Source: a virus (Duplodnaviria; Caudoviricetes). Taken from it: a stretch of 64,000 bases of DNA. The position numbers were made by a program, and so were the translations under genes. The stretch's first letter is position 1; each line of letters starts with the position of its first letter. This document shows positions 6,165 to 59,543 of this stretch, piece after piece. The stretch covers positions 1,209 through 65,208 of the IMG/VR virus record IMGVR_UViG_3300012208_000003; one strand, 5' to 3'. The notes beneath the pieces are model-generated. The model was not told the origin of the DNA. It did not search any database and saw only the letters and a program-made list of their open reading frames with translations.

Positions 6165-6841
6165 TGAGTAAATACACAAGATGGTTTATATATGGATTAA
6201 TGGAAAACAGTATTGTATTTTATGTCGGAAAGACCAGGAATATTTATCGTCGAATGAAAGAACATCGACAAGCACTTGGCTATTGGCCAGAATTTTGTAT
6301 TCTCGAATCAGGTACAACGTTTGCATGGTGGATTGCTGAGCGAAAATGGATTAGAAAACTTCATCCGCAATTGAAAAACATATCTCCCGGTGGTCATGGC
6401 CGCGATTTTCTTCCTGAATCTAGCCGTCGCAAAATTTCACTTGCGAATAAAGGACGGCCTAAACCGCCCAGTTTCCTGCGGAAACTCAAGAGAAACTGGC
6501 GCCTTGGTATCTACGCAGAGCGTATTGTTGCAAAGAATGCTGGGCAATTTCGTAAAGGTCAAAAGAGCGCCTTCGCCGGTTATAGACATCACGAAAAAAC
6601 AAAACTTATTTTGAGTGAAATCAGCAGCAAAAATCTAATCGGCAATAAGCGACGCCTCGGAATCCCATTCACTCCAGAGCAACGTGCGCGTCTATCTGAA
6701 ATTGGCAAGAGAAATCCGAACGGAAATCCTAAACTTATGGCCCAGCGCGCCAAAATGTTTTGGAGCAATCTGAAAGGGAAGAAACGCAAATTGTTTCTCG
6801 CTCATCGAGAAGCCGCACGGCAGAAGGCGCTCAATTCATGA
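6164..6841 (+). CDS. GIY-YIG homing endonuclease with NUMOD3-like repeats
   Basis: FIYGL..FYVGKT..RRMKEH; ESSRRKISLANKGR; AT-richer; interrupts the tail operon. Confidence 0.8.
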   Translation: MSKYTRWFIYGLMENSIVFYVGKTRNIYRRMKEHRQALGYWPEFCILESGTTFAWWIAERKWIRKLHPQLKNISPGGHGRDFLPESSRRKISLANKGRPKPPSFLRKLKRNWRLGIYAERIVAKNAGQFRKGQKSAFAGYRHHEKTKLILSEISSKNLIGNKRRLGIPFTPEQRARLSEIGKRNPNGNPKLMAQRAKMFWSNLKGKKRKLFLAHREAARQKALNS

Positions 6842-7296
6842 CTGAATCCGACCATCGCGCTCAAATCATAGCCATTGCACGATCCTGGCTCAACACACCC
6901 TTCATTGATTCGCAATCTTGCAAGGGTTTCGGGGTCGATTGTGCCTACTTCCTATCTGCAGTTGCTACTGAAGCCGGCGTAGTCGAGCACGTTGAAATAC
7001 CTCCCTATTCACCGCAAATCTATCTGCACAAGAAAGCAGATGGAACCTGGGACAATACCTATGAACAAATCATTCGTCAGTACGCGCATGAAATTTCAGA
7101 AGCCCAGGTCAAACCAGGCGACATAGTTCTTTACAAAATTGCTCACTCCTACACCCATGGTGGCATCATCGAATCCTGGCCGGATAAAATCATTCATCCG
7201 ATTCGTCCTCATGGCGTGATCTATTCATCGGCAAATGAAGGTTTCGTGCGGCAGCGCGAGCATCGTTTCTTTTCCGTGTTCACGGAGAACAAGTAA
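6838..7296 (+). CDS. tail-associated NlpC/P60 peptidase
   Basis: ARSWLNTPF..GVDCAYF, PGDIVLY..THGGI. Confidence 0.85.
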   Translation: MTESDHRAQIIAIARSWLNTPFIDSQSCKGFGVDCAYFLSAVATEAGVVEHVEIPPYSPQIYLHKKADGTWDNTYEQIIRQYAHEISEAQVKPGDIVLYKIAHSYTHGGIIESWPDKIIHPIRPHGVIYSSANEGFVRQREHRFFSVFTENK

Positions 7297-10200: not shown

Positions 10201-10577
10201 TTGGCACCAACGGCATGATCGCTTTCGGCACTACGTTCACGGAACCAACAGCAGGGTTCGCTATGTCCGGCAGCCAATATTCCGACGATGCGAATGGCCA
10301 GAGAGCTGTGCGGGCACTTGATTTGACAGCGTCGACTACCTATTATTTTTATCCTTACTACAATACGAATAGCGGAGCGGTAGAATTTGCTCTCGGCGCT
10401 AATACCGCTATTAGTTTGGCTGCTTCGACCATACAAATTGCTGATGGTAATGTAGGTATGACTACAGGGCCCGTAGCTGGTGGGATTGCTACGCCGGCGG
10501 CAGGCGGTAGTGGTGGTGGCAGCGGCGGCGGCGGCGGCGGCGGTAGTGGCGGTGGCGGCGGCCATAATATTCTATGA
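7296..10577 (+). CDS. tail tip / host-specificity protein
   Basis: 1093 aa; IPILFGQNR, DANPADCI, LEPMDVVTI..VRITKIE, LRRGVLGT, YFKFTSFN; poly-Gly C-terminus. Confidence 0.85.
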   Translation: MGLLGGGGGNRTQKYNAVRTNNSILGITIPILFGQNRIAARLIDYNDFTVNKAKQQGGKGLGKGGTQYVYTASIIALLAQGPINALLNLWDSTGRFVLLNSSENHTIPGGGGTFTPANAAIFGNDQGVYVATSYSVGPFTDYGSPGPVTLTGTHNIPMVQVPSSPGAGQYSVNPTTGVYSFAAADAGKITTVNYSYYRYQIITQEITVVPFSGPYTVTVDNSTNFVADIGVSFYPSGTALIRVGSSPAAGHYSESGGTYTFNSADTGLGIVIHYQYKDTNTSTNAPTTLNLMLVSGLLGQSPLSYMTGKHPSKALGYSQLAYIFSSGLYLGFTPELPNYSYEVAGNYQFGAGILDANPADCILALLTDPAFGIGFPINGISGLDRASLTRNCWTANSFFISPIIENQTPCAHIIGPWLEAGMVGAFWSEGLLKFVAYSDTTAVGNGVTYSPSTTPIVNITDDNYILPKDKAEDPVKITRSAWQDAYNRVQVTYQARINDYNPEVVYEQDEASIGRYGLRIEDPQQYDFVTTLVAAQYAASMRVQRKSYIRNEYTFKLPDTFSYLEPMDVVTINDVVLGLSGTPVRITKIEDDPQEGLSITAEDFIWGTAQPAYNPKGVNAPYILELGQQDPGTIQTPIIFEANHRVTQGLGYQIWIGAAGLNTNWGGCHVWVSRDNTNFLQVQDIYGNQALNSPARMGLATTTLPFGADPDTTNSVTVNLSQSNATLASGTAADADNLVTLCLIDSELISYQTATLVGSSLYTLGTRLRRGVLGTPIAPHAINAPFLRIDANVFKFALDPLFVAQTLYFKFTSFNLLGNQEQSLDAVSSYTFSPMGIKIPVVGTAPANVLSYTAKTNAAASALITFSWSTFNITRSDGSLIVVPASSSLPVPGTPTLGQVAGGSLASRTRYVRIGYMRNAMICGISAESSFAVSANNLLTVTSPTALAGYDGWIPLVGTAANGEYPNTVGTNGMIAFGTTFTEPTAGFAMSGSQYSDDANGQRAVRALDLTASTTYYFYPYYNTNSGAVEFALGANTAISLAASTIQIADGNVGMTTGPVAGGIATPAAGGSGGGSGGGGGGGSGGGGGHNIL

Positions 10578-23830: not shown

Positions 23831-23942
23831 TGTTTAGGCGTTACATGGGCCAATTGGTAGGCCAACTGATTCTTAATCAGTCTATCCTGGTTCAAATCCA
23901 GGTGTGATTCCCCGCAAGGGGCGCTTGAACGACATCCAGGGC
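23820..23942 (+). ncRNA. Y RNA-like unit 1 (tRNA-Lys(CTT)-like cloverleaf cargo)
   Basis: CCTGG/CCAGG stem, CACTG, TTTAGGCG/CGCTTGAA, TTACATG, CGACAT; D, anticodon (TTCTTAA) and T arms inside. Confidence 0.75.
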
Positions 23943-24771: not shown

Positions 24772-25397
24772 ATGGGAAGCGACAAGACCGATGTAGCGGT
24801 AGCACCATCCACAAAAAAGAAATCCGACGACAGATTTTATTTATTGGAATTCACAAACCGTCCCGCACGGTGGGGTGACGTTGGTTCGTTGCTCCGATTA
24901 CAAGGTGTAGTCATTGGGGGCGGTGGGACCGGTGCCGTTTTGATGTTGCCGGGCACAATGCCGAAAATCGGCGAAGCCGGGTGGAGCGCGAACTGGCTTG
25001 AACTTAGCCTCGAAGAATGGAGCGATTGGCTTCAGGCCAGTGATTCCCTCAAATTCTTGTCGGCCCAAGTTTGACCGGTCCGCAAGGCGTAACGCTGCCA
25101 AAAATTTGGGCGCGAAAATTGCGCTATGAAGTGTCCGGCGCAGTTCAGCAAAAAGTTTGGGCTGCTGACCGTTTTAAATGCTATTACTGCGGCGCGAAAA
25201 TGGGTGACACGCTTTTGACGGTTGATCATTTTGAGCCACTTGAAAATGGCGGCAAAAACGATCCTACGAATTTTCTGACGGCCTGCCGGCGTTGCAACAA
25301 AGATAAAGGCAGCGAACCGGCAGAAAAATTTTGCGAGAGACGGCACATCGACTTCGAAGCCGTGAAAATATATCTGGCATCTCGTAAGATTTCTTAG
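24772..25397 (+). CDS. HNH endonuclease, apparently split by a -1 frameshift (24772..25074 + 25044..25397)
   Basis: Strong RBS at 24772; second frame has CYYCG..LTVDHFEP..GG.N..N..TACRRCNKDKG but no RBS. Confidence 0.65.
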
Positions 25398-27836: not shown

Positions 27837-27909
27837 GCAGGCATGGCGTGTAGAGAATCGGAGTGGTACGCATTGACATGGCCGGCACTGGTTCGGCAGG
27901 GCAGCGCAG
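27837..27909 (+). ncRNA. pentamer (NNNNG) guide-like array A
   Basis: GCAG, G at 27845 to 27900 every 5 nt, GCAGC, GCAG. Confidence 0.85.
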
Positions 27910-27924
27910 GCACGGTGAGTTGAC

Positions 27925-28167
27925 GTGAGCACCATCGAAGAACGCATCAAGACGCTCGTCAGCGACAATCTCGGCGTTGGCGAGGAGGAAGTCACATCCA
28001 ATGCATCGTTCGAGCATGATCTTCACGCGGATTCATTGGATATCGTTGAATTGGTCATGGTAATTGAAGAAGAATTCAAAATCGAAATACCCAACGAGCA
28101 AGCAGAGGAGCTCGTCAACGTTGGGCTCTTAATTGAGTATGTGACCAAGCGCGTTGGGAAGCAGTAA
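27925..28167 (+). CDS. acpP: acyl carrier protein
   Basis: [39 protein letters not shown]. Confidence 0.9.
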
Positions 28168-28207
28168 GTAGTTTGGGCGCGGAGCAGTAAAAGCACGGTA
28201 GGTCATC

Positions 28208-28286
28208 GCAGGCGCGGACAGGCGGGTTTCGGTTTGTGAAGGAGAGGCTAGTCATGTCCCGGCATGAAGGGGGCAAGGCATTGCAG
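28208..28286 (+). ncRNA. pentamer guide-like array B
   Basis: GCAG, 14 units (one hexamer), GCAG. Confidence 0.85.
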
Positions 28287-28300
28287 GCAAGGAGACGTTT

Positions 28301-29806
28301 ATGAATGAAAGTGGTCTATCGAAGAATAAAATCATCGCGGAGCTTTCGAAGTCCGCGCATGGCAGTTTGCAAGAATATGTGTCCGTCGGCAAACAGGCCG
28401 CAACGGAGCACGGCGAATTTTTCGCACATCTAATTGCTTGGGATCGCTTGAAAGGCGCGATTCGCGACAGCAAAATTGCTTTGCCGATCGTGAGTTTACT
28501 GGCCCCAAATTATCCGGCCGAATTTGTGGAGAATTCGCTGGCAGCTCTTTCTCTGCTCAATCCCCGCGAGCAGCTCAAGGCGCTCCGGTTCGTGCTAGAG
28601 ACACGTGTGCCCGGACACATGACTTCAATCACCCATACTCTTGGCATTTCGCTGCTCGAGCGCGAAAAAAATTGGCCAAAATGGGAACGGCAAATGCTCC
28701 AGCACCGTGCCGTGCTCAAGGAATTGTTCAGCCTTTTGCACGTCAAGCCGCGCGATCAGCGCACCAAAGCATGTCTCTGGCGTTGCGATAAGCACGATGG
28801 CAAGCGCATTCCGCTGCCGTATCCGGAAGGTGGGCTGTTTGAAATTGTGGCACGGCTCAAAGACCTGCCACCGACGGAAGCGGCCGGCGTAATCATGAAT
28901 AAAAAAATTCCGTTCCTTGTTGCCATGGGAGCGCTCGGCGAGAAAGCCCGAGAAACGGATCTCGTGTTGGCGCTCATCAAATCAATGACGAGCACGGAAT
29001 TGATCACTAACACGAAGATGCTCGAACGCCTGGGCATCAAGACGAACCCGGCGCTGCGCGGCGCTTTCCAGGAAGCGCTGGAAAAGGCCGGCAAGAGCAC
29101 GGCCAACATTCTCAAGACGACTCGTGCGGCTGAGAATATCGACGATGAAGAATTGAAAGAGAATCTTCGTGGCTTGCAAGAAAAACAAATTGCAAGCCTT
29201 GGCGGCGAAGGCAATTGGGCCGTTTTGGCCGATAAGTCAGGTTCCATGACCAAGGCGATCGAACTTGCCAAACATGTTGCTGCTACTTTGGCAAAATTGG
29301 TCCATGGCAAAGTGTGGTTGATCTTTTTCGACACTGCGCCACAATCCATCGATGTTACGGGCATGGCGCTGGACGTTATCAAAAACGTTACACGATACGT
29401 TCAAGCTAACGGCGGAACATCGATTGGATCCGGTTTATTGCGCCTATTCGAAGCGAAAGAGGAGGTTGACGGCGTTTGCATTATTTCGGACGGCGGCGAA
29501 AATACAGCGCCGACGTTCCCGGATGTCTACAAACGATATTCGGAGATGTTCAGGAAGATGCCGCCAGTTTATCTTTATCAGACGCAAGGCGACTCGCCGG
29601 CATTGATTACGACGATGCAGCAAGCTGGACATGACATGCAGGTATTCGACTTGCGCGGCCAGGAGACCGATTTTTACTCCCTGCCAAATCTTGTTCAGAC
29701 GATGCGGACTCAAAGGTTTTCCCTGTCGGACGAAATTATGGGAACAAAACTTTTGCAGTTGTCGGATGCTTACAAGACGACTGTCAAAAAAACGGCCACG
29801 GCGTAG
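28301..29806 (+). CDS. Ro60/TROVE-like protein with C-terminal vWA domain
   Basis: Helical N-terminal 300 aa (KIPFLVAMGAL, SMTSTELITN..L.RLG); MIDAS DKSGS, GGTS, ISDGGEN. Confidence 0.65.
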   Translation: MNESGLSKNKIIAELSKSAHGSLQEYVSVGKQAATEHGEFFAHLIAWDRLKGAIRDSKIALPIVSLLAPNYPAEFVENSLAALSLLNPREQLKALRFVLETRVPGHMTSITHTLGISLLEREKNWPKWERQMLQHRAVLKELFSLLHVKPRDQRTKACLWRCDKHDGKRIPLPYPEGGLFEIVARLKDLPPTEAAGVIMNKKIPFLVAMGALGEKARETDLVLALIKSMTSTELITNTKMLERLGIKTNPALRGAFQEALEKAGKSTANILKTTRAAENIDDEELKENLRGLQEKQIASLGGEGNWAVLADKSGSMTKAIELAKHVAATLAKLVHGKVWLIFFDTAPQSIDVTGMALDVIKNVTRYVQANGGTSIGSGLLRLFEAKEEVDGVCIISDGGENTAPTFPDVYKRYSEMFRKMPPVYLYQTQGDSPALITTMQQAGHDMQVFDLRGQETDFYSLPNLVQTMRTQRFSLSDEIMGTKLLQLSDAYKTTVKKTATA

Positions 29807-29950: not shown

Positions 29951-30103
29951 GCAGGCGCGGAGAGTCTTGACGAGATACGATTTGGAGGGACGTGCAGCGG
30001 TCCGTTCCGTCGAGGCTGGCAGCGGCAGCGCAGGCTTGGCGAGTCACGTTCTGGTAAGTCACGTTGTGGAGAGTAGAGGAAAGACCGGAACGCGGCAAGG
30101 CAG
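29951..30103 (+). ncRNA. tandem pentamer guide-like arrays C1 and C2
   Basis: GCAG (29951), 15 units, GCAG (30030), 13 units, GCAG (30100). Confidence 0.85.
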
Positions 30104-33073: not shown

Positions 33074-33727
33074 ATGGATATTAGCGGAAAGTCGGAAGCC
33101 TCAACTAGTTCTACATTGATCGTTGGCGCTGTTGCACGAATCCAAACAATCGCCGAAAATTTCTGGCATGTCATAAACATGCGTAGGCCCGAAGGCTGTG
33201 ATTGTGCCGGCTGCCGGATGCATCGCTTATTGCCGGAATCTTTGCATGCGGATGCGCAGGATCAAATCCGCTGCCTCAATGCATTCGTCGCCTGGGAAGT
33301 GGCTATTGAAAACCTGGTCACGACCGAAGGCAAAAACGATCTGCTGACAAATTATCTGAAAGGCTCGAGTTACACGGCGGCATTCTACGCGGCTCTCGTA
33401 AACAATGCATCGTTTACCGCTTATGCCGCTGGCGACACGGCCGCACAGATCAATGGCACGAATGGCTGGCTTGAAGGCGTGCCCTACTCGAACGCTAATC
33501 GCGTAACCTGGACTGGCGGGACCGCTGCTGCCGGATCGATCGACAATTCCGCTTCCCCGGCCGTTTTCAATATCAATGCCACGCTTACCGTACGCGGGGC
33601 TTTCTTAAGTACCAGCAACGTAAAAAATGGCACAGGCGGGAAGCTCTATGGCGAAGCCGATTTTGCCGCCGCACGATCAGTATTGAGCGGCGACACGTTA
33701 AATTGCACAATAACTTGTACTGTATGA
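33074..33727 (+). CDS. putative virion structural protein
   Basis: AGGAGG RBS; ENLVTTEG, TVRGAFL, RSVLSGDTL. Confidence 0.6.
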   Translation: MDISGKSEASTSSTLIVGAVARIQTIAENFWHVINMRRPEGCDCAGCRMHRLLPESLHADAQDQIRCLNAFVAWEVAIENLVTTEGKNDLLTNYLKGSSYTAAFYAALVNNASFTAYAAGDTAAQINGTNGWLEGVPYSNANRVTWTGGTAAAGSIDNSASPAVFNINATLTVRGAFLSTSNVKNGTGGKLYGEADFAAARSVLSGDTLNCTITCTV

Positions 33728-34374
33728 TAAATGATATAACAGGGAATAGATTCGGTAGGCTTGCCGTTATACGCAGGGCCGGTTCAACTCCATATACTCC
33801 TTCTGGCGGTAGACGTTCATTATGGCTGTGTCGCTGTGATTGCGGTAAAGAAATAACGCGGACAAAAGATGACCTTTCTAGTGGTCATACAGCTTCGTGC
33901 GGCTGTTTCAGGCGCGATGTAATGTTCAACAAAGCCTTGAAACACGGTCACAATTTACCGGGTAAGCGGACTCGAACATATGAGGCTTGGGCGTCCATGT
34001 TGGCGCGTTGCCTGAATCCTAAAAAGGAAGGATTCGCCAATTATGGGGGCAGGGGAATAATTGTTTGCGAGAGATGGCAGGAATCATTCGCGGATTTTCT
34101 TGCCGACATGGGCGAGTGTCCACCCGATTTATTTATCGACAGGGTCGATAACGACAAAGGCTATTTCAAATCCAATTGCCGATGGACAGACCGAACCACG
34201 AACAACCGCAATCAGAGGAAGAGCATCAGGGTGGATGGAGTTCCACTCGCGCAAATTGCAGAAGAGGTCAAAGTAAGCTACAGGCGTCTCAAATATCAAG
34301 CCGTCACAAAAAAGTTACCTCTTGATCTTGCCATAGCGAACGCTAAGCAATTGGAAATCGGAATTAAAGCATGA
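33724..34374 (+). CDS. HNH homing endonuclease
   Basis: DITGNRFGRL, WLCRCDCG, SCGC, YGGRGI.VCERW, IDRVDNDKGY..NCRW..N.RN. Confidence 0.9.
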   Translation: MINDITGNRFGRLAVIRRAGSTPYTPSGGRRSLWLCRCDCGKEITRTKDDLSSGHTASCGCFRRDVMFNKALKHGHNLPGKRTRTYEAWASMLARCLNPKKEGFANYGGRGIIVCERWQESFADFLADMGECPPDLFIDRVDNDKGYFKSNCRWTDRTTNNRNQRKSIRVDGVPLAQIAEEVKVSYRRLKYQAVTKKLPLDLAIANAKQLEIGIKA

Positions 34375-39049: not shown

Positions 39050-39125
39050 GCCGGGGCAAGGCGCGGCGTGACCAGTCCCGACGAGCATTGGCCGGGTACG
39101 TCCCGAACGTGGCAGGGCAGGAATG
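39050..39125 (+). ncRNA. pentamer guide-like array D
   Basis: G at 39050 to 39105 every 5 nt, hexamer AACGTG, GCAGG, GCAG. Confidence 0.85.
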
Positions 39126-39135
39126 GCACAGTAGA

Positions 39136-39895: not shown

Positions 39896-39968
39896 GGGCG
39901 CGTAGCTCACTTGGGAGAGCGCGGGCTTTGCATCCCCGAGGCAGTCGGTTCGATTCCGATCGCGTCCA
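39896..39968 (+). tRNA. tRNA-Ala(TGC)
   Basis: GGGCGCG/CGCGTCC acceptor with G3:U70; loop TT-TGC-AT. Confidence 0.85.
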
Positions 39969-39979
39969 CAGATTTATAT

Positions 39980-40053
39980 GGCGTCGTAGGGAAACGGTTT
40001 AACCCGCTTGTTTTGGGTACAAGAGATTGTCGGTTCGAATCCGACCGACGCCA
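39980..40053 (+). tRNA. tRNA-Pro(TGG)
   Basis: GGCGTCG/CGACGCC; CTTGT-TTTGGGT-ACAAG; TTCGAAT T loop. Confidence 0.85.
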
Positions 40054-40090
40054 CTTTTTGTGATCCGCCGCGTGGCCTAGCGTTCAAGGC

Positions 40091-40188
40091 TCTAGGAGTG
40101 GTGGGTAGCGCGTGGTCCAACGTGAGAGCCTTCTCTGGGCTTAGTGGTTGGCTCTCGTTCGGGACGGATAAGCTTAGGCACTCCTAGA
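40091..40188 (+). ncRNA. unidentified rod-shaped RNA within the tRNA cluster
   Basis: TCTAGGAGTG/CACTCCTAGA outer and GAGAGCC/GGCTCTC inner stems. Confidence 0.5.
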
Positions 40189-40202
40189 AAAAAATTTTAC
40201 GG

Positions 40203-40274
40203 CCCGCGTTAGCTCAATGGTAGAGCCCCGGCTTGAAGCACCGGTAATGTTCGGTTCGATTCCGATACGCGGGA
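40203..40274 (+). tRNA. tRNA-Phe(GAA)
   Basis: CCCGCGT/ACGCGGG; loop TT-GAA-GC. Confidence 0.8.
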
Positions 40275-40286
40275 TCAAGAGTTTGT

Positions 40287-40362
40287 GGCCCTGTTACCGT
40301 AACGGATAGCGGTCTTGAGTTCTAATCAAGATGTGCGAGTTCGAATCTCGCCAGGGCCTCCA
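40287..40362 (+). tRNA. tRNA-Arg(TCT)
   Basis: GGCCCTG/CAGGGCC; CTTGA-GTTCTAA-TCAAG; encoded CCA. Confidence 0.85.
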
Positions 40363-40367
40363 AGTTT

Positions 40368-40459
40368 GGAGTCGTGGCCGAGTTGACTTAGGCACCGGGC
40401 TGTAGCCCCGGAGTCCCATCGGGACCTAGACGAAGGTTAGAGCCCTTCCGACTCCACCA
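40368..40459 (+). tRNA. tRNA-Tyr(GTA)
   Basis: GGAGTCG/CGACTCC; CCGGG-CTGTAGC-CCCGG; long variable arm; CCA. Confidence 0.8.
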
Positions 40460-40464
40460 GATTT

Positions 40465-40540
40465 GGGTGCGTAGCTCAGTTGGCAGAGCATTCGATTCTT
40501 AATCGACAGGTCGTGAGTTCAAAACTCACCGCACCCACCA
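40465..40540 (+). tRNA. tRNA-Lys(CTT)
   Basis: GGGTGCG/CGCACCC; loop TT-CTT-AA; CCA. Confidence 0.9.
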
Positions 40541-40545
40541 AGTTT

Positions 40546-40621
40546 GGCTCTGTAGCTCAGCAGGAAGAGCAGCGGGCTCATAATCCGCGCGCCGTTGGTT
40601 CGAATCCAACCAGAGCCACCA
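40546..40621 (+). tRNA. tRNA with CAT anticodon (elongator Met or Ile2)
   Basis: GGCTCTG/CAGAGCC; GCGGG-CTCATAA-TCCGC; CCA. Confidence 0.9.
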
Positions 40622-40637
40622 GGTTGGACAGGTGTTC

Positions 40638-40733
40638 GGGAGGTTAGCCTCAATTGGTAAGGCAGCGGACCTGAAACCCGCCGATGGTCGGCGAACCCGG
40701 CCAATGTGAGTTCGAATCTCACACCTCCCGCCA
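40638..40733 (+). tRNA. tRNA-Ser(TGA)
   Basis: GGGAGGT/ACCTCCC, G73, CCA; loop CC-TGA-AA; long variable arm. Confidence 0.85.
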
Positions 40734-42855: not shown

Positions 42856-43064
42856 ACATCTTGCATTCGAAGCTGGAAGATGGCGTGCGCAAATTCACGG
42901 TCCAATCCCTGAGCGATGCGCGCCGTCATTACATCATCACCCGCCGCGCAACCAATAAATGGCAGTGTTCCTGCCCACGCTGGATTTATGGCGTGAAACA
43001 AACCGATGGGACGCGCCGTCGCGAATCGTGCAAACACATCCTTGCTATCCGGGAGATGGTATGA
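42852..43064 (+). CDS. SWIM zinc-finger protein
   Basis: WQCSCPRW...CKHI. Confidence 0.75.
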   Translation: MNILHSKLEDGVRKFTVQSLSDARRHYIITRRATNKWQCSCPRWIYGVKQTDGTRRRESCKHILAIREMV

Positions 43065-45312
43065 CAAATCCTATGGTACGCAGTTTGGTTCCCCCTGAAA
43101 ATATCCTCGCCAATATCCCTAAGACGAAGCAGGATACATTCTTTCTTCTCGATAGGGTACAGCGGCACCTAGAAAAGTCCGGCCGGAAGGATTGCCAGGT
43201 GTTCGTTAGTCCACAAGAGACGAGCGCCATCATTCAGAAGTTAATCGCCAAGGTTTCGCAGAAATGGGTTCGCAACGCGAAAACTTCCAGAAAAGACTTG
43301 CAAACTTTCCGGCGCGCCAAGCGCCGCGTCCGCCGCGTCCAATACAAAGATAAAGTGCAAGTCTTTATCAAGGCGACGGTCCCTGCACTGCGGGCATCCT
43401 TGCCGAAGATACACGGCCAGGGTTTCCTCTCTAAACCCGTCGCAGTTTATCCCTACCGTCCGATGGATACATTCCTGGGCGGTCACCGCGTCAACGTCTA
43501 TCGCCAGGGTTCGCGATTTGACGTGATAGACGGTCTTTGCGGAATTCCAATTCTCGCTGGGCTCACGCGCCGTGGGCTCAAGAAAGTGGTGCAATGGTGA
43601 GACCGACATACATTCTCTGCTATTGCGGCCTGTACCATCCGGTCGATGCTGACAAATTATTTGATTCTCCGAACCATCCGGTCACAAAGATTCCATGGTT
43701 GCGTTTTACAGCCGCAGAACTTGATGGGATGCACGGACGTGGCCAATGGGCTGTGACAAAGGAAGTGAAGCCATGCGACGAATAGATAAATGGAACAACC
43801 AAAAACGCAATGCGTGCCTCAGCGAATTCCGCCGCATGATCGCCGGATGCCGCGAGGCGCAAATCGAGAACGCCATAACTGCGGGCCGGTCTTTGGCGAA
43901 GCTGATGCTTGATGGCCACGTTACCATCACCGGGATCGATGGCGTTCAAATGGAGCGGTTCCGGCGCCGGTACGCAGTTGTGCCGCATCTGAAGCACGTT
44001 ATGTATGCCGTGGCGACTGGCCAGCTCACTGACGATTTATTGGAACAGCGCCTGAACCGCAAATTCCCAGCCTACCGATTGCCGAGCGGACGTCTGCGCT
44101 TGGTCGCCCGATGCGCGCTTTGTTCGAAGCGCACTTGCCGGTGCGTTCCAGCCGACACCCGGCCAGCAAAACAGCGCAAGCAATCACCGGCGCATCCGTT
44201 GGTTGGCACAGTGGTTTCCGTCCGTGGTTTGAACCAGTAAAAGGAGAAACGAATGAACACATGCAAATTCTGCGAATTCACCTGGACGGAAAACCATCCA
44301 TGCGAGCGCGGGATGGACTATGAGACGGGCGAAGTCTATTACTGCGGCTTTCAAGCTTGCCCGATGTGTGGCGCATGCCAAGGCCGCAATGACATTTCTC
44401 CCGAGTCCATCCGTTCTGCGAAACACATAAGGGCTATTCGGGAAGGGCATTCGTCATGAAACTCAAACGGATTAGTTTTATGCGTGTCGATAACCGCATC
44501 GGGCTTGGCGATGCTTTGCCGAATCTGGCCGACATGTTGCGCTACGATGTGGCATTTCAATGCCAGGCTGACCCGCACTTGATCGCTTTCCCGGTATTCC
44601 AGACAAAGGATGGCAACCTGGGCGGTACGATCACTCATGGCCGCTGGGCTTCCTTCGGAGTACTGGTCAAGTATTTGACGGATGCGCAAGACGCTCTGGC
44701 CAGAGGTTATGACAAAAGCCAATGGATAACGTTTCGCCATCCGCGAATATTCGGCCAGTTAGATTACGGGAAGCTGGTTCCCATCACTCTCGAAGCCTAT
44801 TGCCAAGCCAAAGACCCAAGAGACCTTTAGCCTAGCCGCGCTGTATGCGACGTTCAAAAAAAGTCACTCACTGTGCGATATTTCTGCCCAAAACAGTATA
44901 TGCAGCATTACAGCGTAGCGCATGACGCCGAACATGCGCAAAGGGAGAAACGATAATGGGAAACATTCCTCCAGATGAACAGCAGATTCCAGAACCAGAG
45001 CCGGAAGAAGACCTCCGACAATTCTTCGATAGTTCAGAGCAAGTACTCGCGATGAGCATCCAGAAGACTGGCATGAAACAGTTATGGGAACGCCAGACGT
45101 TTTTCAGCACCTATGAATCGCGGCTGCAGGCGCTTGCCGTGCGGCACAATCTGGAGCCGGCCATCCTCAAAGCATTGGTCGAAGACGCCTTCGGAACGTG
45201 CGATACTCCTCCTGCCGAGCAAGAGGCTAAGTTAGCGCTGATGAAACTAGCTAAACTGAAGATCGGGCCTTGCTCCGTGAATTGGCTCTTCCAAGTCCAC
45301 ATTCTAAAATAG
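43061..45312 (+). CDS. run of small hypothetical early-type genes (43061..43600, 43594..43785, 43773..44240, 44253..44459, 44456..44830, 44956..45312)
   Basis: Coupled ORFs with RBSs; no recognisable family. Confidence 0.5.
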
Positions 45313-47643: not shown

Positions 47644-47673
47644 TTGCCCTATAACTTGTTTTTGTAGTAGAAT
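47644..47673 (+). promoter_or_regulatory. promoter directly upstream of array E
   Basis: TTGCCC, 18 nt, TAGAAT with AT-rich upstream tract. Confidence 0.55.
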
Positions 47674-47685
47674 TCAGTCGGCATG

Positions 47686-47763
47686 GCAGGCTTGGACAGT
47701 CGAGAGTTGGACCGTCCGGTCAAGCACCTGCTTGCAGTGGCGTGGAATGGCTTGGAATCGCAG
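47686..47763 (+). ncRNA. pentamer guide-like array E
   Basis: GCAG, 14 pentamers (12 end in G), GCAG; hairpin 47773-47798 follows. Confidence 0.85.
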
Positions 47764-47827
47764 GCGAAGCTAAAAGGCGCATCTTCTGGTGCGCCTTTCT
47801 AATTTCAAAAACGAAAGGAAGTGCATC

Positions 47828-48297: not shown

Positions 48298-48486
48298 ATG
48301 GCTCATGATATCGTCATCGACGTTGCACCGAACGGAGAAGTGAAAATTGAAGTCAAAGGATTCAAAGGCGCGGGCTGCAAGGCGCTCACAAAGGAATTCG
48401 AAGAGAGCCTAGGTAAAAAGATCAGCTCTGTTGACACAAAGGAGGTTTATGAGTCGGAACGAATTCCAGTTCGCAATCGCGCCTGA
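48298..48486 (+). CDS. DUF2997-like protein
   Basis: I...GEVKIEVKGFKG.GC..LT..FEE.LG. Confidence 0.75.
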   Translation: MAHDIVIDVAPNGEVKIEVKGFKGAGCKALTKEFEESLGKKISSVDTKEVYESERIPVRNRA

Positions 48487-48775: not shown

Positions 48776-49285
48776 TGCTGAAGCAACTGCCCGATGGACG
48801 CACTGTCGAAATCATCCCATTGACCTACGGACGCGCCAGAATTGTCATAGGCCATCCTGACGATCTTTCCTACGATGATGCCTGGTGATATGACACTCCA
48901 GAAGCTGCGGTCGCAGCTTTACTTCAATGGGACCCACTGAAAACACCTGAACCGGACGGTTGGATGCGTCATCCACATACTGGCAGGCGTCGACCTGGCG
49001 GAGATCCCCGAAAAGAATATGTTCACCGATGAATGGAGGCTTGAATGATTACTTTCAAAGCAGGGGACATTGTGACTGTCAGCCGGCTGAATTGCTACGA
49101 CGAACCAATAACGCAAACCGTTCAGTTGATCGAACGGCAGAAGGACGGGAACGTGCCCGGGTGGTCTGCCCGGGTCCAGGCTCCACGCAAACAGAAAGGT
49201 CGGCTCACCTGGGTAGCGGATGGCGAGATGCCAGATTTGCCGGGGCAAGAAGTGCAAACTAAGGTTTGAAAAAGGGAGAAACAAA

Positions 49286-50386
49286 ATGAAAGCAGCAACA
49301 GCAGCGCAGAAGTCTATTAGACATTTGGCAGCACTGAAAGCGTGGGCCACAATGCGAGCAAGAAAAGGTCAGCCTGCGCCAGTACCAAAGCCAGTAAGAC
49401 CCCGACCGAAGATGGAACCGCACAAGAAGATCGTATTGCCGAAGCAGGAACGGCCGGTATCAGCAAACGAGCTGCTTTTGCGAACCGTCGTTTTGATTTT
49501 GACTTTCAACGGCATCGGCAACCGCCGCAAAGTGCAATCCGATGAATTCCAGGCCGCCTCAACGCCGAACGCAAAGAATGACAATTGGTTCAACACCACC
49601 AAGAAACTCCTCGATGCCGAAGAGCTCGAAAAAATTACTTCGCTGTATGGCGAGCTACACCGGTTTGTCGAGAGCCGGGCGCTGCCATCCATGATCAAAA
49701 AAGGCGTCCATCTTCTTCCACTGGATTTCATCGAGGAAGTGAATGCCCGGCTGAAACAAGGTGAGAAAGATCTCGAGCCGCTGGTCGAGAGCATGGTCAA
49801 GAAACTCAACACCTACATTGCCGAAGCCAAAGCCCGGCTATCGAAAGTAAAAGTGGGCGATCAGGTCAAAAACTTCTTCAACGAGGACGATTACCCGACC
49901 GGGAAAGAATTGCGCGCCGCTTTCAAGCTGACCTGGCGATTCGTCTATGTGGACAGTGCCAAGAATCTTGAAGCGGTTTCCAAGGAGATCTACGAAGAAG
50001 AACGCGCGAAGGCCGAGGCCGCTTGGGCCGAAACACGTGAAACCATCAAGCAACTGCTTCGTACGCAGTTATCGGAATTGGTCGATCATTTGGTTACTCG
50101 ACTAACACCGGACGAAAGCGGCAAGAAGAAGATCATTCGCGATGATTCAACTAACAGGTTGCAGGAATTCTTGACGACTTTCGATTCGCGGAACATTGTC
50201 AATGACGTACAGATGAAAATCCTTGTCGACCAGGCCAAGAATCTGCTCAAGACAGCAGACGCCGACATGCTCCGGACAGATAAGACCGTCCGCGACTACG
50301 TTAGACACGGGTTTGAAACCGTTCAAACTTTACTAAGCGGCATGGTGGTTGACAAGCCTCACCGCTCCATCAAACTCGAAGATTAG
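49286..50386 (+). CDS. DUF3150-like protein
   Basis: K.LLD, G..LLP, F..DDYP, L..LV.HL..RL, L.EF..F..RN. Confidence 0.6.
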   Translation: MKAATAAQKSIRHLAALKAWATMRARKGQPAPVPKPVRPRPKMEPHKKIVLPKQERPVSANELLLRTVVLILTFNGIGNRRKVQSDEFQAASTPNAKNDNWFNTTKKLLDAEELEKITSLYGELHRFVESRALPSMIKKGVHLLPLDFIEEVNARLKQGEKDLEPLVESMVKKLNTYIAEAKARLSKVKVGDQVKNFFNEDDYPTGKELRAAFKLTWRFVYVDSAKNLEAVSKEIYEEERAKAEAAWAETRETIKQLLRTQLSELVDHLVTRLTPDESGKKKIIRDDSTNRLQEFLTTFDSRNIVNDVQMKILVDQAKNLLKTADADMLRTDKTVRDYVRHGFETVQTLLSGMVVDKPHRSIKLED

Positions 50387-50411
50387 GCCCTAAGTTCTAT
50401 GATAGACTATT

Positions 50412-50500
50412 TTACGGCGAGGCATGGCGTGCAACGTTCAGGCCTGATGTGGTGAGGTCGGTCCTGGCACGGCCCGACGATTTGAGGCAGGGCCGGCACG
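50412..50500 (+). ncRNA. pentamer guide-like array F
   Basis: G at 50416 to 50476 every 5 nt; ends GCAGG-GCCG; preceded by extended -10-like TGA-TAGACT (50400-08). Confidence 0.85.
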
Positions 50501-50506
50501 CTTCCC

Positions 50507-50541
50507 AAAAGGCGGGAGATTCTTTTTCTCCCGCCTTTTTT
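50507..50541 (+). terminator. intrinsic terminator after array F
   Basis: AAAAGGCGGGAGA/TCTCCCGCCTTTTTT. Confidence 0.85.
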
Positions 50542-50564
50542 ATATCCCGCTTCGAAGATTAACC

Positions 50565-50593
50565 TTGCTATTTCATAGACCCTAAGATATAAT
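50565..50593 (+). promoter_or_regulatory. sigma70-type promoter
   Basis: TTGCTA, 17 nt, TATAAT. Confidence 0.75.
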
Positions 50594-50615
50594 CCTAAAG
50601 GAAAAGGAGCCGGGC

Positions 50616-50936
50616 ATGTTACCAGATGGCCGTTATGCAACCCCTTGCGGACCCGGTATCTATCGGTTGATTTGGCTGAAAACCGTCGTTGGTGATTTGG
50701 GAGAAATAGACCGAGGGATGTTTGGCAAGCGCATCGTGTATTACAAATTGCGAAAGAGCAGATGGCAAGCATTTGCATTTCTGAATGATGCCGGAGAGTT
50801 GCAGATTCATCGGAAGTTCCAGCTCACTTGGACGCCAGAACAGGTGGCCGCCATCCGGTCCGCAGTTATGGCGATTCAGGAAAAGCCGGAAGCAGCGCGA
50901 GATTTGTATCTCGAAGTTGTTGCAGTAAAGCAGTAA
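50616..50936 (+). CDS. hypothetical protein
   Basis: AGGAG RBS, 106 aa. Confidence 0.65.
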   Translation: MLPDGRYATPCGPGIYRLIWLKTVVGDLGEIDRGMFGKRIVYYKLRKSRWQAFAFLNDAGELQIHRKFQLTWTPEQVAAIRSAVMAIQEKPEAARDLYLEVVAVKQ

Positions 50937-50942
50937 GGCACG

Positions 50943-51043
50943 GCAGGCGAGGAGAGATGCGTCAAGGGGAGAATTGGATAGCCGAGCAGTGCAGTGGCAA
51001 GGCAGCGCAGGAACGGCTAGGGCGGACGCCGAAAAGTCCGCCC
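50943..51043 (+). ncRNA. pentamer guide-like array G with GCCGAAAA-loop hairpin
   Basis: G at 50946 to 51001 every 5 nt, GCAGC, GCAG; hairpin 51020-51043. Confidence 0.85.
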
Positions 51044-51068
51044 AAATTATTTACAAGGGGAGAAACAA

Positions 51069-51905
51069 ATGGCGACTCGCACATGGAAGGGCTTCATCAG
51101 TTTCGGCCTGTTATCAATTCCAGTCGGCCTTGCAGTAGCTGCACGGGATGAACATATCTCATTGAACATGCTGCATTCAAGTTGTAAGGGCAGAATCAGA
51201 ATGCCGCGAACATGCGAAATCTGCAAGACGGTTGTTCCATCGGAAGAAATCGTCAAAGCCTATCCGACCGGGAATGATGCGTATGTCGTTCTGACAGAAC
51301 AAGAAATCGACGCCATTGAACCGCAATCCGGCAAGACCATAGAAATCAGTCATTGTGTTCGTGCCGCTGAAGTGGATGAAGTTTATCTTGGCGAATCTTT
51401 TTTCATTCTTCCAGAGGCTCCAGGATTGAAAGCATACGGTCTTCTGGTCCGAGCATTGAAGGATTCCGGCCGAGTGGCGCTCGCGCAAATCTGCAAAAGC
51501 AATCGCGAACATATCGTATTGCTTCGGCCGCGCGGCACCGGTCTCGTGGCGCACTTTTTGTTTTACCCAAGCGAAGTCCATAAGGTCGCCGAATTCGATT
51601 CGATCGTATCGCCAGACCTATCAAAAAATGAAATCGCCCTAGCCCTAAAGTTGGTGGAGTCCTTGGCATCTGATTTTTGTCCAGATGAATTTGAGAATGG
51701 CTATGAAATGCGGCTCAGCCAATTGATTGCCAGCAAAATGGATAGTAAAGTCGCGGCTCCGACGCCGGTCAATGTCCCGACAAAAGTCCCGACAATCGAT
51801 ATCGCTAGTGCGCTTATCGCATCGCTCGCGTCTCCGAAGCGCAAGGCCGGTACAGAAGAGGCCGCTCCGAAGGGCAAAGCCAAAAAGGGCAAGAAAGCCG
51901 CCTAA
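51069..51905 (+). CDS. ku: Ku DNA end-binding protein
   Basis: WKGFISFGLLSIPV.L, EEIVKAY..YVVLT..EI, KAY.LL..AL, REH.VLLRP, ASALIASL. Confidence 0.92.
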   Translation: MATRTWKGFISFGLLSIPVGLAVAARDEHISLNMLHSSCKGRIRMPRTCEICKTVVPSEEIVKAYPTGNDAYVVLTEQEIDAIEPQSGKTIEISHCVRAAEVDEVYLGESFFILPEAPGLKAYGLLVRALKDSGRVALAQICKSNREHIVLLRPRGTGLVAHFLFYPSEVHKVAEFDSIVSPDLSKNEIALALKLVESLASDFCPDEFENGYEMRLSQLIASKMDSKVAAPTPVNVPTKVPTIDIASALIASLASPKRKAGTEEAAPKGKAKKGKKAA

Positions 51906-56809: not shown

Positions 56810-57309
56810 TGATCAAATGGGAACCGCTCCAGCCAGCAATTGCCGTTTCTCGCATACCGGACCAGGACATTAGAAATCGCGCAGAACAGAAAAATGCGAA
56901 GGAAGCGAAAGTTTTCAGAAACAATCTCTTCACCGTCCACAAACGCGAAAGGCCAATCGTCGATAAAGATGGAGTCGAAGTTGGGACACTAATCCAACTC
57001 TCTATCCACGATCACGCTCGCAGCACACGCCGCGATTGGCGGCACTTCCAAAGAATCAAAAATGAATTGCTTGGCCCGGAGGAAGAAGCCGTTGAACTCT
57101 TTCCAGCCGAATCCAGATTGGTCGACACATCCAATGAATATTTTTTATGGAGCATCAAAGGCTGGAAGTGGCCAGTTGGATTTAACGAACGGTGGGTTTC
57201 AGAAGGCGGCTATGACATCGGTGCCCGGCAGCGCAAATGGGACGACGAAAGCCGGCCCGCCGATTGCCGCGATATCACAAAAAAGGATATCGAGGATTAT
57301 CTGAAATGA
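56809..57309 (+). CDS. hypothetical phage protein
   Basis: DW..FQRIKNEL.G.E.EAVELFP.ESRLVD..N. Confidence 0.65.
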   Translation: MIKWEPLQPAIAVSRIPDQDIRNRAEQKNAKEAKVFRNNLFTVHKRERPIVDKDGVEVGTLIQLSIHDHARSTRRDWRHFQRIKNELLGPEEEAVELFPAESRLVDTSNEYFLWSIKGWKWPVGFNERWVSEGGYDIGARQRKWDDESRPADCRDITKKDIEDYLK

Positions 57310-57319
57310 GTTTGCCGTG

Positions 57320-57429
57320 GCAGGAGAGGAGAGATAAGGCTCGGAGAGAAGAAGGCGAGGCTAATCCGGGCGTGGTCAGCACTGTTACGGCAAGGCAGGA
57401 ACGGCTAGGGCGACGCCGCGAAGTCGCCC
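57320..57429 (+). ncRNA. pentamer guide-like array H with GCCGCGAA-loop hairpin
   Basis: GCAG, 14 units (one hexamer), GCAG; hairpin 57408-57429. Confidence 0.85.
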
Positions 57430-57453: not shown

Positions 57454-58557
57454 ATGAAGGCAACGATTTTGTATTACAACGATTTGGCAACAGGCGGAAG
57501 CAGCGACAAGGAATACCGCGTTCAGATTGAGCATTTCAAAAAGGGCCAGTGGAATCCGGCACCACAATTGGAAGGCTACGTCGTGCTATTCCAGTACGGG
57601 CGCCGCGGCGGAACACTCACGGCTGGTCATAAATGCGATCCGGTTCAACTCGCAGAAGCAGAACGCATCTACGACAAATTGGTCCGCGAAAAAACTTCAA
57701 AGGGCTACGTCGGCGCGGAGGCCGGCACCGCGGCTCCGCTCGCGCCAGTCGAACCGCCAGACAATAGTACGCGGACACAGTTCCCGGTCGAGCTGCTCGA
57801 GGAAGTCACGCGGGAAGAAGCAGAACTATTGGTTAAAGATGACCGCTACCTTCTGCAAACCAAACTCGACGGGCATCGCCGTCAAATTGAAAAGACAAAG
57901 ACCGGCGATTTTGTGGGTTATAACAAGAAAGGCGAGCCAGTTGCCCTCTCGGCAGAGTTGGTCAAGAGTCTCAAAGCCATCACCCTTGATTCTTTTTTCC
58001 TTGATGGCGAGATCATCGGCGACAAGTATTACGCCTTCGATATTTTCTTTGCTGATGGCACGAATATCAGAACCATGCCTTATGAAAAGCGCTGGCTGCT
58101 TCTTGATGAGAAGGCTCCGGATTTCGCGGTCGATACCTGGCATTCAACGGCTCAGAAGCAAGCCGCCCTAGCATTGCTTCTGAAACGACGCGCTGAAGGT
58201 ATTTGTTTCAAACGCAAAGATGCACCTTATCGCGCAGGTCGGAACGGTCAACATAAGAAATTCAAATTCCTAAAGAGTGCTAGTTGCAAGGTCATTGGAA
58301 TGGGTCACAAAGGTCACAATTCTGCGACACTCGCACTGCTCGACAAAGGCAAATGGCGCGAAGTTGGTCGTGTCAGTTTGAACGGGAAAGATTCACGAAT
58401 CAAGCTTGGCTCGATTCTTGAAATCACATTTTTATATGTCGGAAGTGGCGGCCGTTTGTATCAACCGCGCGTCAAGGAAATGCGCACAGATATAGCCGAA
58501 TCGGAATGCGTTTTCGCTCAACTCAAGAAGGCTTTCAAAGAAGGGATTGCAGCCTAA
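57454..58557 (+). CDS. WGR-domain ATP-dependent DNA ligase
   Basis: SDKEY..YGRRG..KGY; KLDG.R, LDGE, AFD, EGICFK..Y..GR, KFK, QPR..R.D. Confidence 0.88.
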   Translation: MKATILYYNDLATGGSSDKEYRVQIEHFKKGQWNPAPQLEGYVVLFQYGRRGGTLTAGHKCDPVQLAEAERIYDKLVREKTSKGYVGAEAGTAAPLAPVEPPDNSTRTQFPVELLEEVTREEAELLVKDDRYLLQTKLDGHRRQIEKTKTGDFVGYNKKGEPVALSAELVKSLKAITLDSFFLDGEIIGDKYYAFDIFFADGTNIRTMPYEKRWLLLDEKAPDFAVDTWHSTAQKQAALALLLKRRAEGICFKRKDAPYRAGRNGQHKKFKFLKSASCKVIGMGHKGHNSATLALLDKGKWREVGRVSLNGKDSRIKLGSILEITFLYVGSGGRLYQPRVKEMRTDIAESECVFAQLKKAFKEGIAA

Positions 58558-58567
58558 GTTTGCCGTG

Positions 58568-58671
58568 GCAGGAATGGCCAGTCCTGGCAAGTCGAGGCAA
58601 GTCGGGACCAGAATTGGCCGGGCCAGTTGCGGCAAGGCAGGAACGGCAAGCGGCGGCCGACAACGCCGCTT
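58568..58671 (+). ncRNA. pentamer guide-like array I with GCCGACAA-loop hairpin
   Basis: G at 58571 to 58636 every 5 nt, GCAG; hairpin 58648-58671. Confidence 0.85.
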
Positions 58672-58690: not shown

Positions 58691-59408
58691 ATGAAAGCGA
58701 TTCATCTGAAGCCACAACTTGCTGGTGGGAAGATTTTCAGCACGAAAGTGGGCCGGAAGTGGACCTACATCAAAGTGCGCCTGGCAACAAAAACGATCAA
58801 GCGCGCAATCGCAATGGCCGGGAACTAGATGTTAAACCGTGCTCGACAGCCAATCCGTTACTGGATTGCCCGGACATTTTTAGAAGCGCTGTGGTTCATC
58901 TGTGGACTGAACAGAAAGCAATGAAAGGAGAAACTATGGGAGGCGAAGAATTCTTCACTGAAAGAAGGGGGAGCGATTTGGAAGCTACGTTCCGCGAAGC
59001 AGTAGAAAAAGCGCAATACGACCATGGGCACAGCGGCTACACCGGAACCATTGGCGAAAAAGTGAGTGCGATTCTTCGCGCTACCGTCGGTACCTGGGGC
59101 GAGGCGCGCGAATTCGCCCGGAACGATTTGCGCAAGAATGGCGATGACCACGACAAGTGGGGTCCAGCCTGGGCAGTGAAAGTGACCGAACCAGGCAATG
59201 TAGGCTTCCTCTTTTACGGCGTGGCGAGTTCCTGACCATGAAGAAAAAGAAGAAGCGTGATTGGTCAAAGGTCATCGAAGAACTTTGCCTGTGCGGCCAC
59301 AAAAAATCGCAGCATGGTGGAGTAGTTCATCATCTTGAGTGCTTCCAATGCGCTTGCACGCGATTCACTTGGAAAGCATTCCTCAATAAGCAAGGGAAGC
59401 AAATTTAG
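58691..59408 (+). CDS. three small hypothetical genes (58691..58828, 58936..59235, 59238..59408)
   Basis: AGGAG RBSs; GHSGYTGTIGEK..DKWGPA motif in the second. Confidence 0.55.
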
Positions 59409-59428: not shown

Positions 59429-59543
59429 GCAGGTAGGGCATGGCGCGGCGCGGCTTGGTTGGCCATGGAATGGCTTGGCAGGCAGCGGCGCCGCAGGCAT
59501 GGCAAAGAAGGACGGCAAAGCCGGAGAGCCGCGAATCTCCGGC
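59429..59543 (+). ncRNA. pentamer guide-like array J with GCCGCGAA-loop hairpin
   Basis: G at 59432 to 59487 every 5 nt, GCGCC, GCAG; hairpin 59520-59543. Confidence 0.85.

Follow-up and report, generated by a model that had tools for sequence, protein, structure and literature searches.

A probable stand-alone guide cassette of the VIPR kind in a tailed phage appears to spell rival alleles of the gene beside it

Why should a phage keep, directly behind one of its genes, a short repeat tract that resembles a stretch of that very gene imperfectly? The question is raised by array F, a tract of pentameric repeats downstream of a gene for a 366-aa protein in the 64,000-nt stretch of DNA analysed here (the window; positions 1,209 to 65,208 of the IMG/VR virus record IMGVR_UViG_3300012208_000003). 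Comparison with related phages leads us to the reading, held at a probability of roughly 80%, that array F is a stand-alone guide gene of the recently described VIPR systems which spells rival alleles of the upstream gene, guide and own allele forming a linked weapon-and-antidote pair.

VIPR systems consist of a protein, Vipr, and a guide RNA, the vrRNA (bioRxiv 10.64898/2026.04.26.720920; structural companion 10.64898/2026.04.26.720927); both the gapped code and the element class are already published in these 2026 preprints. The vrRNA is described as 9–16 GGY-NN pentamers with a conserved 3′ tail and is called from at least four units, relaxed NNNGG, YNNNG and NNNNG units being admitted (10.64898/2026.04.26.720920). 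Vipr is a RAMP protein of about 20 kDa with an RRM core, a G-loop and a thumb, one protomer of which binds each repeat and buries the GGY triplet (10.64898/2026.04.26.720920, 10.64898/2026.04.26.720927). The NN pairs read double-stranded DNA with each third base, usually the wobble base, skipped; either strand is read without a protospacer-adjacent motif (PAM), and competing phages or satellites are thereby silenced at the level of transcription (10.64898/2026.04.26.720920). Assembly and DNA unwinding run 3′ to 5′ from the tail end (10.64898/2026.04.26.720927). A follow-up preprint reports solo vrRNAs in SUSP1-family phages and F5 satellites, some of the phages having lost Vipr; these guides can work with a rival's Vipr, and their self matches lie below their non-self scores (10.64898/2026.10.15.759431).

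Array F comprises 17 in-phase pentamers (units 1–9: ggcGA ggcAT ggcGT gcaAC gttCA ggcCT gatGT ggtGA ggtCG; units 10–17: gtcCT ggcAC ggcCC gacGA tttGA ggcAG ggcCG gcaCG), within the published definition of a vrRNA, and stands in an insert of 165–175 bp that separates the stop codon of the 366-aa gene from the next gene's promoter (TTGCTA-17-TATAAT, 50565-50593; Table 1). Its last three units are probably a conserved handle and not part of the guide, judging by the recurrence of GGCAG/GGCA[AG]GGC near the 3′ end of most arrays in this phage and its relative G001; unit 15 (AG), which lies within GGCAG-GGC, may belong to this handle instead of the guide. The earlier note on this DNA, made from the letters and their open reading frames (ORFs), had called the element a complete promoter-guide-terminator unit. 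The GC-rich hairpin with its T-run is real, but the promoter is a candidate proposed from the likeness of CCCTAAG...TATGAT to the phage's own CCCTAAGATATAAT at 50580-50593, and a sigma-70 consensus scan called none for the cassette. A consensus terminator scan gave only a weaker overlapping hairpin (50501-50518), and in RNA folds of F and of a second array, E (z -4.0 and -2.4), the tail hairpin was nearly the only structure. Array F was not reported by Tandem Repeats Finder, and Rfam covariance models run over the whole window at the gathering score returned nine tRNA matches only, leaving array F unmatched.

Table 1. Features of the array F locus and of related arrays in the window (positions count from the first letter of the window)
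Feature	Position	Strand	Detail
Upstream gene, 366 aa, weakly DUF3150-like	49286..50386	+	ORF with ribosome-binding site (RBS) GGGAGAAAC
Self site, 15 codons, ELVDHLVTRLTPDES	50075..50119	+	in frame of gene 49286-50386
Left copy of duplicated gene end, ATCAAACTCGAAGATTAG	50369..50386	+	perfect 10-bp core TCGAAGATTA at 50376-50385
Promoter-like cassette start, CCCTAAGTTCTATGAT	50388..50403	+	proposed from likeness to the phage's own CCCTAAGATATAAT promoters
vrRNA repeat tract F, 17 in-phase pentamers	50416..50500	+	guide pairs of units 1-15 at 50419-50490
Last three F units, GGCAG GGCCG GCACG	50486..50500	+	units 16-17 without match to the self gene
Tail, 13-bp GC-rich hairpin then T-run, terminator-like	50507..50541	+	RNA fold; kept in sister contig L032
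Right copy of duplicated gene end, ATCCCGCTTCGAAGATTAA, end of insert	50544..50562	+	core TCGAAGATTA at 50552-50561
vrRNA E unit	47644..47800	+	promoter TTGCCC-17-TAGAAT, 17 pentamers, first pair 47687, hairpin tail
Own DUF2997 gene, self allele of guide E's target	48298..48486	+	8/13
Further array	27838-27915	+	
Further array	28179-28300	+	
Further array	29957-30095	+	
Further array	39053-39130	+	
Further array	47687-47770	+	
Further array	50944-51030	+	
Further array	57307-57415	+	
Further array	58564-58660	+	
Further array	59430-59515	+	

Read with one base skipped after each pair, the guide resembles the gene upstream of it. On re-reading, the 15 dinucleotide pairs and the self site given by the earlier note were both correct, the site lying on the same strand as the array and in the reading frame of the gene (codons GAA TTG GTC GAT CAT TTG GTT ACT CGA CTA ACA CCG GAC GAA AGC). 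The match of 11/15 (24/30 per base, 0.80) was likewise borne out; the mismatched units are 2, 4, 6 and 8, and the final seven agree throughout. The runner-up site for F in the 65,208-bp genome, both strands included, scores 6/15; shuffled orders of the F pairs gave best scores of 6–10 and never 11 (n=500), and a second shuffle run of the guide pairs reached at most 9 (n=300). That the self codons are AT-shifted, as had also been claimed, found little support in a codon-usage check: the G+C content at third codon positions, 0.40 at the site against 0.61 in the gene, is not significantly low, a value no higher being found in 10% of the gene's 15-codon windows. The code skips wobble bases, so that of the codon shifts at the site only the one at unit 6, where leucine switches between TTG and the CTN family, is relevant.

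Sister phages indicate which allele the guide fits better. We compared 15 metagenome loci, among which L031 is of the window type and L033–L036 are of the G001 type. L032, a contig of a sister phage, carries at the site of F a cassette, F′, with start, phase, tail hairpin and 3′ units in common with F, whose guide pairs differ from those of F at exactly units 2, 4, 6 and 8, the same four units at which F mismatches its own gene. Guide F scores 11/15 on its own gene, 12/15 on the L032 allele, 12/15 on L038 (a homologue at 55% identity) and 10/15 on G001. Conversely, guide F′ scores 10/15 on its own L032 allele, 14/15 on the window allele and 12/15 on G001. Counted per base, F matches 24/30 on self and 27/30 on L032, and F′ matches 29/30 on the window and 23/30 on self. 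The register of the code is sharp: on the window genome F′ reaches 14/15 at a skip of one base and 7/15 at a skip of zero or two. Over all comparisons skips of zero and two give 5–7 and a skip of one gives 14/15, 12/15 and 12/13; scores at a skip of three come from arrays matching themselves, and genome-wide runners-up for the guides score 6–7. These comparisons support the view that F behaves as a gapped-code guide in a transcription unit of its own, its pairs spelling a non-self allele of the upstream gene and the own allele scoring below the rival one, in agreement with the published VIPR rule and with the published ranking of self below non-self scores.

The protein differences point the same way. 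The 366-column proteins of the window and L032 differ at 27 residues, of which four lie in the 15-residue site. A homologue alignment, which the earlier note had proposed as a check, showed that F spells the family consensus where the phage's own protein is unusual: at position 8 of the site 34 of the 38 aligned homologues have D or E, and T stands in the window protein, the sister P0002 and the distant P0039; at position 2, 18 of the 38 have M; and the threonine spelled at position 4 is present in the natural alleles P0008 and L021. At unit 6 the window and L032 differ in leucine codon family only (TTG versus CTT), each guide carrying the version of the other phage; the switch is synonymous, yet visible to a code that skips the wobble base. 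Homologues of the upstream gene numbered 42, and an identical protein is encoded on a 132.7-kb contig; the match to Pfam DUF3150 (E=0.0043) is under the curated cut-off. No relative was found in a set of one genome per prokaryote species, and blastn of window 49000-51100 against GenBank phages gave no match.

A second locus ranks non-self over self in the same manner. Units 2–14 of guide E match the DUF2997 gene of G001 at 12/13 and the phage's own allele at 8/13, antisense and wobble-aligned, and on G001 a skip of one base gives 12/13 as against 6–7/13 at a skip of zero or two. E and the corresponding G001 array, E′, have the promoter and first unit in common and entirely different pairs. Codon-phase matches are antisense for E, for array A and for a G001 array at 21096, and sense for F. 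To compare local with distant matching, 10-unit windows of 17 arrays (11 from the window, six from G001) were scored in zones of ±700 bp and set against every other zone of that genome; a local codon-phase match at an empirical p ≤ 0.04 was seen for seven of the 17 arrays and for 10 it was not. Each of the seven best local matches keeps codon phase; four of them are sense and three antisense.

The window holds at least nine other pentamer arrays, all on the + strand and intergenic (Table 1). In several of them the last bases are GGCA[AG]GGCAG, with a GC hairpin next and the RBS of the following gene close behind it. Array A (27843-27900) is antisense, in codon phase, to the upstream PspA-like gene at 9/12 (minus strand 27363-27328). 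From the pairs of array D (39053-39105) one reads G N A V Q P D F R T P, a variant of the peptide motif N-[AY]-[TVI]-Q-[PA]-D-[FYS]-R-x-P, which is repeated in small ORFs on both sides (38859, 39187, 39319); in G001 the array reads N Y T Q P D F and agrees at 8/10 with a copy at G001rc 5266. In the array before the ligase gene, six consecutive pairs (57352-57380) correspond to KEYRVQ of the N-terminal region of the ligase, in frame (57508-57525). A GGC/GGT triplet repeat in a large tail protein gene (10495-10562), coding for a glycine/serine run, causes spurious matches for G-rich arrays.

A period of five with a conserved triplet, in arrays of which several lie in leaders followed by a hairpin and the next gene's RBS, is also what a binding tract for a ring-shaped, RNA-binding attenuation protein of the TRAP kind could look like. 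TRAP sites consist of GAG/UAG triplets separated by spacers of 2–3 bases that carry no information. On that account the triplets here would be bound, the two-base spacers would be free and the codon match would arise by chance. Free spacers would not, however, spell in-frame neighbour alleles, on either strand and in two phages; the triplet here is GGY and not GAG/UAG, outside the definition of a TRAP site; and the period of five is accounted for by the published structure of VIPR (10.64898/2026.04.26.720927). We regard this explanation as very improbable. TRAP-like attenuator and G-quadruplex ideas were dropped, the VIPR preprints accounting for the period, as was five-base-codon decoding, the nine tRNA genes being ordinary.

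Could the guide instead act on the phage itself, damping its own upstream gene through the seven perfect 3′ units? The self site is the best match of F in its own genome, its per-base identity of 0.80 falls on the cut-off of 0.8 used by the follow-up preprint (10.64898/2026.10.15.759431), published assembly starts at the 3′ end, and several other arrays match their own neighbouring gene below threshold. Autoregulation nevertheless predicts the opposite of the ranking seen for F′ (14/15 on the window against 10/15 on its own allele) and for E (12/13 on G001 against 8/13 on self). In VIPR, natural targets were called at an NN match of at least 80%, and no self match that high occurred in the preprint's own sets (10.64898/2026.04.26.720920). 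Regulation of the phage's own gene is an unlikely explanation. Partial docking of guide F on the self site is possible, because this site is perfect over the seven 3′ units, the side on which assembly starts. That 5′-half mismatches would suffice for immunity, as the earlier note suggested, is a hypothesis made plausible by this natural pattern.

Several observations weigh against the reading of array F as a guide against rival alleles. Its top non-self score of 12/15 is just at 80% and one unit above self, and with unit 15 counted as handle the scores become 10/14 on self and 11/14 (79%) on L032. No match to the perfect 15-pair target pattern exists in the viral contigs, and 16 viral homologues of the upstream gene give F at most 10/15. 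When any start read at period 5 was compared with any site at period 3 over the whole genome, one unrelated pair also reached 11/15, and control query periods of 4 and 6 reached 11/15 and 10/15, a caveat on the self match. The triplets of F are strict GGY in only 10 of 17. Finally, no Vipr gene was recognised in the window genome (43% complete) or in G001 (60%), although Vipr is said in the preprint to be unrecognisable by sequence: Pfam found no RAMP family among 87 window ORFs or 61 G001 ORFs, PHROGs (47 ORFs) and NCBIfam (30 ORFs) found none, and two folded candidates had no RAMP match. As to chance, the number alone is not enough, and we count 11/15 as significant only because the phase of the array fixes the query beforehand and because the match shares the strand of the array, keeps the reading frame of the gene and lies within about 300 bp.

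Other routes to an effector gave little. SUSP1 Vipr searched against six-frame ORFs of at least 80 aa from both phages had a best phmmer E of 2.8 and Smith-Waterman scores up to 50, and a regular expression for the C-terminal G-loop found nothing convincing. For 42959-43597 the ESM Atlas gave no more than leads under 0.9, and a PDB sequence search with 28301-29803 one match (E=0.63). The latter region encodes a 501-aa protein (28301-29806) with weak matches to VWA (CoxE-like) and to an 'RNA-binding protein' PHROG; it lies, as does an acyl-carrier-protein gene (27925-28167), between arrays A, B and C. Guide F may use the phage's own effector or, as is published for solo vrRNAs, that of a rival.

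That no Vipr gene was recognised in the window genome or in G001 would also suit a relic, that is, a phage without an effector in which the cassette is a decaying, functionless leftover; the loose triplets and the publication of Vipr-less phages with solo vrRNAs (10.64898/2026.10.15.759431) are in line with it. Decay is at odds, however, with the fact that the window and L032 have kept the promoter-like start, phase, tail hairpin and 3′ units in common despite changes in four guide pairs, and with at least 10 arrays kept on the + strand in intergenic gaps. The window contig is about 43% complete, and published solo guides work with the Vipr of a rival. An orphaned relic seems improbable to us.

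Under the favoured reading, of a guide aimed at rival alleles, an RNA would be made from the cassette, and Vipr protomers, the phage's own or a rival's, would each bind one F pentamer, hiding its G-rich triplet and leaving its two variable bases exposed. Such pairs would read double-stranded DNA with the codon wobble skipped, and transcription of the bound rival gene would be silenced. The guide would spell a stretch of 14 or 15 codons of the upstream gene in the version of a rival sister; the phage's own copy, differing at four units, would score lower, and the guide and the resistant allele would be kept together and used as a linked pair in competition between closely related phages. What is directly visible at F and E is the repeat anatomy, the matching with a one-base skip and the ranking of non-self over self at the two loci.

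In its likeness to VIPR, F has GGY-NN pentamers, codon matches that skip the wobble base on either strand (F sense; E, A and the G001 array at 21096 antisense), and NN pairs that are hypervariable on a kept scaffold (4 of 15 units differ between F and F′). Its repeats are followed by a hairpin with T-run that is kept in L032; other arrays have different GC hairpins. F is borne by a phage, its targets would be rivals, and non-self scores are at or above 80% and self scores below it, for F by one unit and depending on whether unit 15 is counted. The reference locus of Escherichia phage SUSP1 (NC_028808.2, the type II exemplar) was inspected; there GGT-NN arrays flank genes of 195 and 146 aa. Unlike this arrangement of an array beside vipr, the guides here are single units in at least 10 intergenic gaps, no vipr or vap gene is recognised, the scaffold is looser (G at the first position of 16 of 17 triplets, strict GGY in 10), and what the guide would target is a version of a gene present in the phage itself, next to the guide. 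The conserved 3′ tail is a pseudoknot in the SUSP1 clade, whereas that of F folds as a plain GC hairpin with a T-run.

The solo vrRNAs are likewise stand-alone guides without an adjacent vipr; they target relatives and score self below non-self. They differ in that the target regions in the preprint (vipr, satellite) are never covered by the guide-bearing phage's own homology (10.64898/2026.10.15.759431), while here the own homologue lies 300 bp from the guide and each of two sisters has, at one common site, a guide against the allele of the other. The literature search yielded the three VIPR preprints and one passing mention, and in the sections consulted a guide beside its own resistant allele, with sisters mutually armed at one site, is not described.

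CRISPR and phage mini-arrays likewise direct an RNA guide at a competitor and spare self through mismatches. Unlike them, F has no repeat-spacer array, contiguous pairing, PAM or adaptation genes, and ignores wobble bases.

The alleles and guides can also be arranged as haplotypes: the allele fitted by the window-type guide is that of L032, the guide of L032 suits both the window and the G001 allele, and G001 is without the cassette. This would be a linked weapon-and-antidote haplotype with reciprocal guides at one site, and would drive an arms race between alleles over a hot spot of 15 codons, in which escape would come by amino-acid changes and by synonymous switches between the leucine families CTN and TTR; we hold this extension tentatively, at a little short of even odds. 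In G001 and L033–L036 the F cassette is absent and the gene ends in ATCCGCCTCGAAGATTAA, directly followed by CCTTGC; the gene end of G001 runs straight into the next promoter. The cassette of the window is flanked by two copies of the gene end. Arrays are hypervariable, or present in one phage and absent from another, between phages about 85% identical, the array at 59430 and that before the ligase gene also being absent from G001. Cassettes may come and go between duplicated gene ends, and recombination may pass them on jointly with the allele that protects. L032 has an extra array with a hairpin tail (540–690) between the stop codon of the preceding gene and the RBS of its 366-aa gene homologue, absent from the window and without a target at ≥7/9 in either phage. 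The pattern of the F cassette tail had no matches in the viral contigs.

The window represents nearly all of the 65,208-bp record, about 43% complete by CheckV, of a tailed phage with nearly all genes on the + strand, among them tail genes and genes for RecT, a HerA-like helicase, Ku, an ATP-dependent ligase, ParB and a clamp-loader-like ATPase. G001 (91.8 kb, 60% complete by CheckV) is the only close relative in the viral collection and is syntenic with window 31055-64000 at an identity of about 75–90%; its two genes just past the end of the window are HNH-type nuclease-like and methyltransferase-like, judged by eye. The tRNA genes of the window form an eight-tRNA cluster (39896-40733) and a lone tRNA-Lys (23838-23913), and the cluster of G001 contains about 3.5 kb of extra DNA (G001rc 5864-9401). 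About 410 bp at 58828-59239, with an ORF of about 100 aa and its own RBS, are absent from G001. Genes resembling GIY-YIG and HNH homing endonucleases are scattered through the window (6164-6841, 25071-25397, 33703-34374).

The locus offers a natural series of three haplotypes (window, L032 and cassette-free G001) in which guide and target alleles can be compared. It shows guides aimed at the rival version of a gene that the phage also needs, and the positions that separate self from non-self. Guide and own allele are suggested to stay adjacent because a recombinant with the sensitive allele would target itself. Mismatch position is left unweighted in the sections on scoring of the follow-up preprint (10.64898/2026.10.15.759431), and the locus is a test bed for the mismatch tolerance and polarity of VIPR. 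It also shows that the wobble-proof design of the code is limited, because amino acids with six codons allow synonymous escape.
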